A stretch of 61,946 nt of DNA, filler included, from Dugesia japonica (lineage: Eukaryota): assembly GCA_001938525.1 (NCBI GenBank). It is 5 parts of 5 records of this genome, joined end to end, with 100 filler letters (N's around TTAATTAATTAA, not from the genome) between each part and the next. Parts side by side here need not be neighbours in the genome. Positions count along the whole stretch, not along the records: positions 52,270 to 61,946 come from MQRL01614532.1; 4 more parts are not named here. The stretch is one strand, 5' to 3'. Position numbers and translations under genes: made by a program. Shown here in pieces: positions 56,020 to 60,720 of this stretch. Under the pieces are notes generated by a model. It did not search any database. It had not been told where the DNA came from and saw only the letters and a list, made by a program, of their open reading frames with translations. How positions within the stretch are numbered: position 1 is the first letter of the stretch; each line of letters begins with the position of its first letter.

Positions 56020-57700
56020 ATTGTTTACATGAATACTGTTCCGTTTTCTATACACTGAATTTCTTTTTCAAATATTCCATAAGTTATAACATATGGTAAT
56101 GTTGTTAAAGCTTAGGCAAACTTGATATCCAATCTCAAATTTCCTTGTTGAAGTAATTGACTCTGATTTCTATCAAAATCTGTAGTAAGAATAAATGTAA
56201 AGAAGGGATAATTATTCTAAGGTTTTTGAGGTGTTATTGTACAATTCATAATCTTATCCAAATATCCCATATTTCTTACTATAGATTATATATATGTTGT
56301 GATATAATTAACGTTTGCAATTTCTTGAGTATATATTCCTCGATAATCAGTGTTTTCATCAAGGAAACAGAAACAGCATCTACATTTTAAAATGGTAAAT
56401 TTGAGCTTTAATAATTACCATTATTTTGTTCACCACTTTGAAATATAACCAAAATAAATCTAGGTAATCGACGATCACCATTGATTTGTTCTTTATAAAA
56501 CGACGTAATATCTTTATTAATTGCAAATGCAACGACGTCCTTGGTTCTTATTTGATAGATAGCATTTTGCTTTTTTAGACCTAGTTGATGAACAACTAGT
56601 ACANNNNNNNNNNNNNNNNNNNNNNNNNNNNNNNNNNNNNNNNNNNNNNNNNNNNNNNNNNNNNNNNNNNNNNNNNNNNNNNNNNNNNNNNNNNNNNNNN
56701 NNNNNNNNNNNNNNNNNNNNNNNNNNNNNNNNNNNNNNNNNNNNNNNNNNNNNNNNNNNNNNNNNNNNNNNNNNNNNNNNNNNNNNNNNNNNNNNNNNNN
56801 NNNNNNNNNNNNNNNNNNNNNNNNNNNNNNNNNNNNNNNNNNNATTGCTGTAAGACATATATTCTTACTATCATTATTATAATTTATTATAGTTTCAATT
56901 ATTGCTTTGTGAATATAAGATCCATTTTCACCTTCAGTTCTAAAATTATTAAACGAAAAAANNNNNNNNNNNNNNNNNNNNNNNNNNNNNNNNNNNNNNN
57001 NNNNNNNNNNNATAGCATTTTGCTTTTTTAGACCTAGTTGATGAACAACTAGTACAGAGGGTTCAACGCGTACACGTCTAACACTTAGTTTTGCATCTAG
57101 CAATACATATTTAAGTTCATTGACTGTAAATTCCAAATAAATCTTAGAATATGCTCTTTTTAATCGAATATGGACATTGACACCTAGAAAAAGGTATTTT
57201 TNNNNNNNNNNNNNNNNNNNNNNNNNNNNNNNNNNNNNNNNNNNNNNNNNNNNNNNNNNNNNNNNNNNNNNNNNNNNNNNNNNNNNNNNNNNNNNNNNNN
57301 NNNNNNNNNNNNNNNNNNNNNNNNNNNNNNNNNNNNNNNNNNNNNNNNNNNNNNNNNNNNNNNNNNNNNNNNNNNNNNNNNNNNNNNNNNNNNNNNNNNN
57401 NNNNNNNNNAAAAAATTACATCCTTAAAAAGCGTATGCAACATATATTTACTAAAACCAGCATCATGAGTGTCAGCCATATCTTTACCATCCTTATCAAC
57501 TAATTTCACTTTAATATACAATAAAGTATCATTCAAATCCAAATATTCAGTTTGAGATCCATTTATAATAAACTTTACATTGCTTTGGGATACTGAAATT
57601 GAATTTATCGGCAAGACAACTTCGAAATTACCACTTGCAATTACAACTTGTGAATATGGTCGATAGTGATGAAAGTTGATATAGATTGTTGGTTCTGTTT
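56020..57700 (-). pseudogene. Polinton/adintovirus major capsid protein (double jelly-roll hexon), gapped
   Basis: PINSIS...FIINGSQTEYLDLNDTLLYIKVK, LHTLFKDV, YIHKAIIET, DAKLSVRRVRVEPSV..H, LPRFILV and GNLRLDIKFA. Confidence 0.88.
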
Positions 57701-57859
57701 TGGGTTGATTTGTTAACATATTAGTTATTTCAGATGGTATTTTATTTGTTATAATTTGTTGCAATATACCTGCTTCTTTTAAAATCATATTGGTATTTCC
57801 ACAAGATAAGTAAGAAACTATATTTCCAAGTTCAGGTAATGTATTAAATTTCAATGTTG

Positions 57860-58050
57860 TTAGTATTTTCTGCATCAAAAAGTAGTACATCCTTAGCTGT
57901 TTTCACACCAAATGAACCAATACGTCTAAGAATAGGCAAAGCAAATCTACCCATTGTTTGTAACCAACCAGATCTATGCTGTTTTCCAAGAAAATAAGGT
58001 AATTCTCCACCTTTTGACTAATACTATACAACAATACAAAACAAGGATTT
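57860..58050 (-). pseudogene. Small basic core-like protein between penton and hexon
   Basis: QKGGELPYFLGKQHRSGWLQTMGRFALPILRRIGSFGVKTAKDVL. Position and pattern are typical of adintovirus small core proteins. Confidence 0.6.
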
Positions 58051-59118
58051 ATTATTAATTTTTCTAAAATGTAACGTGAAATGTGTTTATGAGTTTTCAA
58101 CAAAATTGACTAGTTTTCCAATATCATCACGTATATGGATTTCTGTTTGCTTTTATATGACGAAGAAATATGTAAATAAATTGGATGATCAACAATTATT
58201 TGAACTATATCCTCATTCTCATGTTCCTTTATCCATATTGTTTTCAATAAAGGAACATTTACATACCTACCGTTATAGATTCAACAATGCTACAATAGAC
58301 GAACATTTCATTATAACACTTTAGTATTCTAGGTTTTTTATTACGTTTATATAGTACTTATTTATCATATAATTGTATTCTAGTATATTACGAATCATTT
58401 AATCCTAATGTCTTTGTTAAGATTTTATTGAATTTAAAACCTTTAGTTCTACTTGCTAACTTAAATTCGAATAGTTCATCTTTATTTAATTTAAAAGTTT
58501 TAAATAACCTTGAAAGGTGTTTCTTAAAATAGTTATTTAGTTGATTTAAATCCTTTATATGCGATTCAAATTCGAATTGAAATGAATCTTTAGTTACAAT
58601 CGAATAATAATATTTAATTCTTAGTTTTCAATGGTATTATTGTTTTTTAAAGTCTTGAAAGCCAAAAGCAATTGTTTCATCTCTAAAATTCATACTTGTA
58701 TCAAAAACTAATTTAATATTCAAACTTTCATTTTCGCTGCTAAAATATGAAGGTTTCTAAAGCATCAAAGAATAAACTGTAGAATGTAATATAATTAGTT
58801 AAGAATAACACGTTTTCTTTCGATAATTGTATAATTGTTTCCGTATTATATTTATATTTGTCTTGAGAATTAAAAGTTAAAAGAACGTTTTATCTTTATT
58901 GTTAACATCAAGTATTAGTTCCTATTCAATTAGTATAAATAATTCATATTCAATCCTAGATCGAGTGTAAAGATCATATCCGTCACGGCTACTTCCCAAC
59001 TACTATCCATGTAAATTGGTTTTTGTAGCTCAACAATGTATTTACTAACAATATTATTTGGATGAACTAGTGAGCTACTATTACTATATAATAGCACATA
59101 TAAATTATTTGATTTCAT
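58050..59118 (-). pseudogene. Minor capsid protein (penton)
   Basis: N-terminus YVLLYSNSSSLVHPNNIVSKYIVELQKPIYMDSSWEVAV. C-terminus IRDDIGKLVNF...FTLHFRK. Confidence 0.8.
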
Positions 59119-59214
59119 CTGAGTTTTTGTCTTGATTGACTATTTGTATTGTTAATATCCAACTTCGTTTATTGTATACATATAATTTTATAGAGTATTG
59201 TTTATTCTTTCCAA

Positions 59215-59320
59215 GGAGTCAGTACTTTTAGATCGTCCAAGCTACATTGAACAAACTATACTCGACTTGAGCGAATTACGGATGTATCAGTTACAATATA
59301 TCGAGCTCAAAAAGCGCAAA
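59215..59320 (+). pseudogene. pPolB fragment
   Basis: LDRPSYIEQTILDLSELRMYQLQY. Confidence 0.7.
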
Positions 59321-59689
59321 AATTTAGAAAACTGTAAAAAATATTATAGATAGTGAATACTTCTTTGTAATTTCATCTTTATTTATTTATTAATTAATTA
59401 AACATATCATTTATTTGTTTATAATATCTATTTTCTGATCATCATACTGAGTTTCATTCCGTTCCTTTTGCAGGTTTTTAAAACATANNNNNNNNNNNNN
59501 NNNNNNNNNNNNNNNNNNNNNNNNNNNNNNNNNNNNNNNNNNNNNNNNNNNNNNNNNNNNNNNNNNNNNNNNNNNNNNNNNNNNNNNNNNNNNNNNNNNN
59601 NNNNNNNNNNNNNNTTACTTGATTAACTAGAAATTTATTTAATTTTATCATTTTGTCATTTTGTTATACTAAGAAAAATGAACTAATTT

Positions 59690-60150
59690 TTTTATATACT
59701 GGGATACCATTTAGGTTAAATATATCTGTTCTAACTCTATAATTATCTATACATTGTTGTGTAAAGTTAAGAAATAGATATCAATGAGTTATTTCTGTTG
59801 AACCTTGAGACTGTTCAAAAAGAAATGATCTCTTATTTAATTATATTTGTCTAGAAAATTAACAGCAGTCTGATCTCTATGATCTTTGAATATAATCATA
59901 TATTGTACAGATTGATTTTATTAATTATCATACANNNNNNNNNNNNNNNNNNNNNNNNNNNNNNNNNNNNNNNNNNNNNNNNNNATATCAATGAGTTATT
60001 TCTGTTGAATCTTGAGACTGTTCAAAAAGAAATGATCTCTTATTTAATTATATTTGTCAAGAAAATCAACAGCAGTCTGACCTCTATGATCTTGGAATTT
60101 AATCATATATTGTACAGATTGATTTCAATAATTACCATACAAAAAATATT
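59690..60150 (-). pseudogene. Packaging ATPase C-terminal remnant
   Basis: YLFLNFTQQCIDNYRVRTDIFNLNGIPVY and QYMIKFQDHRGQTAVDFL are homologous to 40500-40730. Confidence 0.7.
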
Positions 60151-60291
60151 GTATTTATTTCTTCCATTATTTTTCTTTATCTTGTTTTTCTTTACTTTAT
60201 TCATAATTTATAAAATTTTTTATATTTTATTTAACGGATCAATGAAATTTACTTCATTNNNNNNNNNNNNNNNNTCATTAATTCATTAATT

Positions 60292-60720
60292 ATGATAACT
60301 AATTTTAATTACAGAGTGAAGTGTCGCAAGAAGTTACAAAGAAAATGAGCTTTCCTATAGGCAAACCATATGAATTTCATGTCAAAAAAGACGAATATAT
60401 AATTATATTCTTCAGATCAGGAAAATGTAGAATAATGGATTGTAAGAAACCATTGGAACTGCATGATTTGACCCCATATGATATAAAGAAGTTACAATTA
60501 CAATCGCTCATAATTCTCGTAAATATAAGAGTTAAAATAAATCTGCATAAATTAGCAAGAATAGTCAACTTTTGGTTCGAATCAGAGTTATTTCCTGCTC
60601 CAAGACTTGTAAAATATGACCCTTTATTTGTAAATGTGTTATCAACCANAAAACTAATAATACTAAGGCTTCAAAATTTATATTTTTAGGAATATATGGA
60701 TAACATTAATTCATAATTGT
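60292..60720 (+). pseudogene. TBP-like protein, copy B (122-codon open frame plus a frameshifted 5' end)
   Basis: MITNFNY.../...IIFFRSGKCRIMDCK...LQLQSLIILVNIRVKINLHKL...FESELFPAPRLVKYDPLFVNVLSTxKLIIL. Confidence 0.78.

Follow-up and report, generated by a model that had tools for sequence, protein, structure and literature searches.

Decayed Polintons in Dugesia japonica carry copies of a conserved gene for a compact TBP-like protein, a candidate late-gene promoter factor

We examined a 61,946-nt stretch of the Dugesia japonica genome (GenBank assembly GCA_001938525.1; hereafter, the window), which joins five parts from five records, is AT-rich (GC content ~25%), and is interrupted by 34 runs of N. 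The window contains the remains of two Polintons, elements A and B, and each bears a gene related to TATA-binding protein (TBP). These two genes, copy A and copy B (Table 1), both stem from a conserved Polinton (adintovirus-type) gene, now decayed in each, whose product is a 150-residue protein with the TBP fold. An earlier interpretation made by inspection of the DNA (the sequence-only reading) had described copy B as intronless, aligned end to end with copy A at ~45% identity and on a different piece. The relationship itself is borne out: copy B matches copy A in a translated search (tblastn E = 4e-18, 47–48% in two pieces), identity is 43% across 122 aligned sense codons, the longest open piece of copy B matches the Pfam TBP family (E = 5e-4), and six N gaps lie between elements A and B. 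Copy B is not an open gene, however, having a frameshift just past its first codons (~60309–60315), stops at 60687 and 60714, and one N, as well as substitutions at several positions that are nearly invariant in the family. Copy A is likewise broken, by one frameshift and several stops. Both copies do lack introns, but we rejected this as evidence about them because introns are generally absent from Polinton genes, according to the available portion of PMC8097293. Both are fossils, and their value lies in the family to which they belong. In the same window, the end of a neighboring host gene (27918–28400, minus strand), which we take to be a SET-domain gene, contains an in-frame 51-nt GT-AG intron.

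Table 1. Features of elements A and B, in window coordinates; Polinton genes were assigned through homology with intact ones
Feature	Position	Strand	Remarks
Element A, 4.9-kb internally deleted Polinton	39180–44099		Terminal inverted repeats of ~125 bp and 6-bp target duplication
TBP-like gene, copy A	39570–40009	−	Broken; last gene before left inverted repeat
Packaging ATPase remnant, element A	40110–40728	+	Head-to-head with copy A, no gap
TATAAAC	41037–41043	+	26 nt before small basic core gene
Small basic core gene, element A	41048–41341	+	After ATPase
Two YATAAAC	41309–41350	+	Before integrase remnant, element A
Integrase remnant, element A	41436–42203	+	Homology
Penton end, element A	42127–42393		Homology
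TATAAAC	42279–42285	+	Inside penton end A; relatives have it there, ~100 nt before PZ
Protein-primed DNA polymerase B, C-terminal remnant, element A	42407–43305	+	Homology
Hexon (major capsid) remnant, element B	56028–57650	−	Homology; interrupted by three N gaps
PZ core-protein gene remnant, element B	57874–58014	−	tblastn E = 7e-17 to L018 gene
Penton (minor capsid) remnant, element B	58060–59112	−	Homology
CATAAAC	58085–58091	−	~36 nt before approximate PZ B start; may be chance in decayed copy
TATAAAC	59417–59423	−	~260 nt before approximate penton B start
Packaging ATPase remnant, element B	59688–60200	−	C-terminal part; partly duplicated across 50-N gap
16-N gap between ATPase remnant and copy B	60259–60274		N run
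TBP-like gene, copy B	60292–60731	+	Broken; ATG at 60292

A search with copy B led to P0001, an intact relative of 150 residues (68%; 90 of 137 residues identical), and with P0001 as the query, 94 of 96 candidates were relatives. The family comprises 69 clusters in a 50% library, and its profile recovered 349 of 2036 candidates at E = 1e-15; among the at least 120 listed, nearly all came from metagenome and run assemblies. We examined the best 80 of 144 metagenome loci (denoted L with a number), of which 26 belong to the TBP-like family. The predicted linkage to Polinton genes was found: 10 of the 26 contain a Polinton core gene, including all five loci longer than 4 kb, another 12 contain shared accessory genes, and four, all short, contain none of the listed genes. 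Full-length TBP-like genes also accompany Polinton core genes in five additional loci (L032, L033, L034, L038, and L050), and an independent ATPase-based scan revealed a TBP-like gene on 5 of 17 partial Polinton contigs, two of them of this family. Scans of IMG/VR turned up canonical-type TBPs only, no member of this family, and nothing related to the hexon or ATPase, and a hexon search of a phage collection gave no match. The family is very abundant, and its TBP-like part is as common as the hexon. Contigs of run X2 that match copy B exactly have a depth of ~38–41, and the summed X2 depth over the TBP-like gene at 80% likeness, which is not a copy number, is ~106,000–113,000, comparable to several hexon bins.

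The TBP-like gene belongs to the Polinton family and has been under purifying selection. Comparison of copies A and B gave nonsynonymous and synonymous differences per site (pN and pS) of 0.325 and 0.618, with a dN/dS of 0.33 and a 95% range for pN/pS of 0.41–0.69; because the window copies are decayed, this reflects past selection on active elements. For 18 outside genes, pN/pS was below 0.64 in all 153 pairs, and the 14 closest outside pairs were divided between seven with dN/dS of 0.12–0.28 and seven that were saturated. With dN/dS of 0.12–0.33, with 94 relatives, and with the linkage to Polinton genes, the view of the sequence-only reading that this is a stable, selected gene of the family now has far stronger support than was available to that reading. 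In a quick, unrooted tree of 57 proteins, in which branches are long, the 19 compact TBP-like proteins form a starred group (support 99), and the compact, intermediate, and full-length Polinton types fall on one side of a branch (support 89), with cellular, archaeal, and giant-virus TBPs on the other. In the alignments, helix H2 grades from full length, by way of a shortened form, to complete absence.

Structurally, P0001 matches Pfam TBP (PF00352) above the cut-off (E = 2e-12), and its AlphaFold model, built from 86 sequences with a confidence score (pLDDT) of 95.6, is a complete two-lobed saddle whose N-terminal lobe is without strand S2 and helix H2. The best match of the model in the PDB is TBP (E = 1e-9; Z score 13.4 over 149 residues). 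Residues were counted in 159 proteins of 135–175 residues (median 151) from a set of 308, leaving out cluster look-ups and off-length proteins, and yeast residue numbers were taken from Table 1 of PMC12529657 and mapped via alignments. Three of the four intercalating Phe residues are kept (in 157, 158, and 159 of the 159 proteins), and the fourth is mainly K, P, R, or S. The two stirrup glutamates that bind TFIIB are retained in 152 and 158 proteins. At six minor-groove positions the replacements are fixed and mostly polar: V71 by N (147 proteins), V122 by R (156), T124 by M (159), N159 by S (152), V161 by T or S (156), and L205 by N (159). A seventh minor-groove position, which we take to be yeast I194, is Arg in 147 proteins. 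Where a canonical eukaryotic TBP has four Phe and a hydrophobic concave face, these proteins have three Phe and a polar face.

The N-terminal lobe differs as well. In place of H2, 142 of the 159 proteins have a linker of 17–22 residues, compared with 32–33 in seven of eight cellular TBPs. The basic patch of H2 that serves Mot1, TAF1, TFIIA, and Brf1 is probably lacking, with the helix absent from the model and the linker 10–15 residues shorter. In the available text of PMC7221094, the two C-lobe glutamates are described as binding TFIIB and the H2 patch as serving Mot1, TAF1, TFIIA, and Brf, with viral TBPs diverged at both. In KSHV (Kaposi's sarcoma-associated herpesvirus), ORF24, which drives late genes, is polar at V122, T124, V161, and L205 and is without the TFIIB glutamates (PMC12529657, in part). 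By its polar groove residues and retained glutamates, the Polinton protein thus resembles ORF24 at the DNA face and cellular TBP at the TFIIB latch.

A candidate target of the protein emerged from an unbiased count of words upstream of 21 virion genes, which found ATAAACA in 14, with 0.6 expected. We then scored sense-strand [CT]ATAAAC (YATAAAC) within 120 nt of the starts of virion and integrase genes. The motif precedes 20 of 25 genes in nine discovery loci and 9 of 10 in two held-out loci. Elsewhere it is found before 1 of 15 and 1 of 20 genes in six loci with other TBP types and before none of 33 genes in 12 loci with no TBP seen. The comparison of the held-out loci with the 15 other loci of the ATPase scan (Fisher p = 4e-9) makes the contrast look stronger than it is, since genes that share a locus are linked. 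The TBP-like gene itself is preceded by the motif in only 1 of 21 cases, so that a TATA variant stands before the putative late genes and not before the factor's own gene, as in a viral late-gene TBP mimic. Instead, 19 of the 21 TBP-like genes have an initiator-like TCAKW within 45 nt of the start codon (a raw count, without background), and eight have a TATA-like box. In the window, the motif occurs at three of four gene positions in element A and two of three in element B (within 300 nt, with approximate starts), against an overall density of 0.37 per kb per strand. A different motif, ATGCAAA, precedes five of eight virion- or integrase-type genes in L034, whose TBP has a different face. L038 contains eight CGTAAGA sites, picked by eye and not by a de novo test, and C[AG]TAAGA is seen in both L038 and L098, the latter a 6.9-kb contig with no TBP gene seen. 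A de novo search gave nothing clear for L093, L102, L092, L097, or L103.

On balance, we favor a model in which the TBP-like protein is the element's own late-gene promoter factor and a candidate reader of YATAAAC. Host TBP would first transcribe the TBP-like gene from an ordinary promoter, with its initiator-like TCAKW and TATA-like box. The polar face of the Polinton protein would then bind YATAAAC, and the retained E-x-E stirrup would recruit host TFIIB and RNA polymerase II, while the protein might evade Mot1, TAF1, TFIIA, and Brf1 because their docking helix H2 is gone. The ATPase, core, integrase, penton, hexon, and protease genes would thereby be switched on in a late, virion-gene phase. 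A broader proposal, which we offer more tentatively and do not yet prefer to its negation, is that animal Polintons operate an early-to-late switch on host RNA polymerase II by means of a bare 150-residue TBP, in which the host control handle is lost and the TFIIB latch kept, together with lineage-specific pairs of protein and promoter (YATAAAC, ATGCAAA, CGTAAGA). Such pairs could constitute a natural orthogonal set of TBPs and promoters, and at the sequence level they could mark a cycle that produces virions.

Several observations weigh against this model. In all three RNA runs, which bear the name of the same species, few reads cover the TBP-like gene; they run in both directions, and diverged copies account for nearly all of them. 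Mean depth is 0.3–40 per direction in data without a host-gene control, and there is no cluster of starts, a pattern that is neutral as to functional expression. In the deepest run, 2 of 2500 reads are 99% alike to the copy, and no RNA dataset containing copy B was among the matches listed. The distance from motif to ATG (7–107 nt) is wider than a strict TATA position would allow, and neither ATPase A nor hexon B in the window has the motif before it. In ATPase and hexon trees, the motif bearers occupy one or two neighboring clades, with L034 unresolved among them, and a single clade of motif bearers is not rejected (approximately unbiased test, p-AU = 0.08 and 0.37). Motif and protein are found together in these one or two clades of elements, so their association amounts to roughly a single evolutionary contrast. 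In addition, the held-out set consists of two loci whose genes are not independent, the loci with no TBP seen are partial contigs, the TBP-bearing L093 and L102 have no clear motif of their own, and CGTAAGA in L038 was chosen by eye.

The most serious alternative, although we consider it unlikely, is that the motif is a true promoter element read by a host factor, either host TBP on a TATA variant or a Forkhead protein, and that the Polinton protein does another job. TATAAAC is one base away from the canonical TATA box, ATAAACA fits the Forkhead consensus, and the motif and the TBP-like gene share element ancestry. However, TATAAAC is strictly sense-oriented in the 11 family loci (51:0, compared with 17:15 in the other 15), whereas canonical TATAAAA shows no strand bias there (27:26) and neither GATAAAC nor AATAAAC is enriched. 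A Forkhead site would call for A after ATAAAC, which is found in just 59 of 102 cases, and 18 other Polinton loci are almost devoid of the motif. Less likely still is that the protein is a decoy or repressor that holds TFIIB or occupies its own or host promoters to damp transcription, or that element DNA is its target, in replication or packaging. In favor of such roles are retention of the TFIIB glutamates, loss of one intercalating Phe and of the TFIIA/TAF surface needed for normal activation, and a T7 gp2.5-like single-strand binding gene, described below, that often adjoins the TBP-like gene. Such a role alone, however, does not explain a motif that stands before virion genes yet is missing before the TBP-like gene.

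We regard as improbable the idea that the motif acts at the RNA level, for example as a variant poly(A) signal or as the terminator of the gene upstream, and has no connection with the TBP-like protein. The motif does resemble AATAAA and lies mostly near the 3′ end of an upstream gene on the same strand, but many occurrences are 57–111 nt inside the upstream frame, where cleavage would remove the stop codon, and the lone antisense motif of the discovery set, in L001, sits 37 nt before a divergent gene. Peptide coding was also considered as the cause of the motif and rejected: 22 of 26 occurrences inside coding sequence fall in the last 130 nt, which is 18% of the length, and they are split 13:13 between two frames, so the motif is not a peptide effect. 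Finally, the idea that a fragment of host TBP was captured once and then persisted without selection, which the broken state of both window copies might suggest, can be set aside given the hundreds of intact relatives, the invariant non-host residues, the uniformly low pN/pS, and a starred clade separate from cellular TBPs.

The elements that carry the two copies are both incomplete. Element A has terminal inverted repeats at 39180–39302 and 43969–44099 that start with AGTAG, and it is flanked on both sides by the target duplication CACAGA, as expected for a Polinton. The hallmark pair of polymerase B and integrase is present as remnants in A, with none seen in B, and is intact in relatives L023 and L090. 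Of the packaging ATPase, major and minor capsid, and PZ genes, element B has remnants of all, and element A has the ATPase and the end of penton. The sequence-only reading had described the same arrangement upstream of the capsid genes in both elements, but because A has no hexon and B is missing two genes that come after the ATPase in A, the integrase and the small core gene, this shared order was pieced together from two incomplete elements. Its layout for element B is correct in that ATPase, penton, PZ core, and hexon remnants lie on the minus strand, but the ATPase is partial, with its N-terminal half gone, and is cut off from copy B by a 16-N gap that none of the matches listed bridges; a contig of run X2 bridges another gap, at 59488–59614. 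One part of this ATPase remnant lies at 59688–59917, and the duplicated parts are 94% alike. The intact L018 homologue of hexon B has a weak Pfam DJR-like match. No adenovirus-type protease match was found in the window, although relatives L012, L013, and L090 have one. There is no A-type inverted repeat near element B, whose right side meets a retrotransposon remnant.

Conservation of the head-to-head TBP-like/ATPase pair could likewise not be upheld as a family trait. The pair is contiguous in element A alone, where the genes are ~100 bp apart, and none of the seven outside family loci that hold both genes has this layout. Both genes are on the same strand in all seven, with the ATPase downstream of the TBP-like gene in six and the TBP-like gene behind hexon and protease in one. 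The head-to-head layout is therefore confined to the elements of this host or to close relatives of them, and it may have arisen by local inversion in an ancestor of this host's subfamilies. Elsewhere, a divergent TBP-like gene in L102 (4714–5232) is head-to-head with the hexon, ~40 bp apart.

Other genes recur beside TBP-like genes. One that often adjoins the TBP-like gene (L004, 576–923; homologues in L001, L003, L005, L010, and L011) has no Pfam match, and its protein model (pLDDT 92.6) matches T7 gp2.5 and Enc34-type single-strand binding proteins (Z scores 7.7–8.2 over ~100 residues); it was not found in the window, and an atlas search with this protein gave no match. A PC4 co-activator gene (Pfam E = 4e-21) lies near the full-length TBP-like gene in L038 (1302–1790) and L050 (281–616), and paired small genes of unknown family occupy its site in L032–L034. 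L090–L106 are 17 Polinton-type contigs inside bacterial genome bins, a placement that is probably binning contamination. Within the window, remnants at 60860–61946 and 5774–6648, which we take from their motifs to be Ty3/Gypsy-like, are 67% alike, and RNA depth over the stretch examined peaks in the one adjoining copy B. Remains of additional Polinton subfamilies lie at 50046–52990 and 30570–32378. They comprise AGTAG-type ends at 50048, 51350, and 52976, pieces at 50300–52170 that, again from motifs, are presumably polymerase-like, and a polymerase B remnant at 30570–32378.

TBP labels in adintoviruses were already known, and it is the analysis of structure, selection, residues, and promoters that appears to be new. 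One line in the legend to Fig. 5 of Starrett 2021 (PMC8502044, in part) gives a 'TBP' label in an adintovirus, its preprint has such a label too, and supplementary file 2 of the Buck 2024 preprint (PMC11071296) has 27 'TBP' labels, with at least 14 Adinto records among the 18 listed; the available main text does not mention TBP. These adintovirus and MELD-virus genes are likewise TBP-like genes in animal Polinton-type genomes, published as labels. Adinto18043_TBP, placed after the packaging ATPase, has CRIMG and EPELFP motifs in common with the family. In some of these adintovirus records, a TFIIB-like gene ('Tiib') adjoins TBP, a different solution from that of the family described here; none was noticed in the family loci examined, where no search was aimed at it. 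We found no published analysis of a Polinton TBP or of the motif in the literature within reach, including the texts of PMC10748475, PMC8097293, PMC12220804, and 10.64898/2026.06.19.733378, with subscription papers, Repbase reports, figures, and part of the Buck supplement outside that reach.

With cellular TBP/TRF and archaeal TBP (PF00352), the Polinton protein has in common the two-lobed saddle, three of the four Phe, and the YEPELFP stirrup, but it is ~30 residues shorter, lacks H2 and S2 in the model, has a replaced groove face, and is only ~20% identical. The TBP-like factors of giant viruses, asfarviruses, and poxviruses have the same fold (Foldseek E = 6e-8 and weaker) and have also lost the N-lobe regulatory signature. 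Unlike the Polinton protein, they are paired with viral TFIIB and viral polymerases, their TFIIB glutamates have diverged (PMC7221094, in part), and the giant-virus type groups with cellular TBP, apart from the Polinton family, in our quick tree. A possible functional parallel is offered by KSHV ORF24, Epstein–Barr virus BcRF1, and cytomegalovirus UL87, TBP mimics with a polar DNA face that read a TATA variant specific to the virus and rely on host RNA polymerase II to express late genes (PMC12529657, in part). ORF24, however, has 752 residues, five partners, and direct polymerase binding and is without the TFIIB glutamates, whereas the Polinton protein is bare, has 150 residues, and keeps them. 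The Polinton proteins of 135–175 residues counted here do not belong to that family, whose members are large, with a polymerase-binding N-domain, an extra C-domain, and no TFIIB glutamates. Our work bears on whether and how animal Polintons express their capsid genes, for which a small element-encoded TBP and a seven-base candidate promoter are now candidates. If the model is correct, the protein would be an unusually reduced TBP and a natural test of what surfaces RNA polymerase II requires in order to start, and it would differ from the viral TBPs described so far in keeping the contact with host TFIIB.

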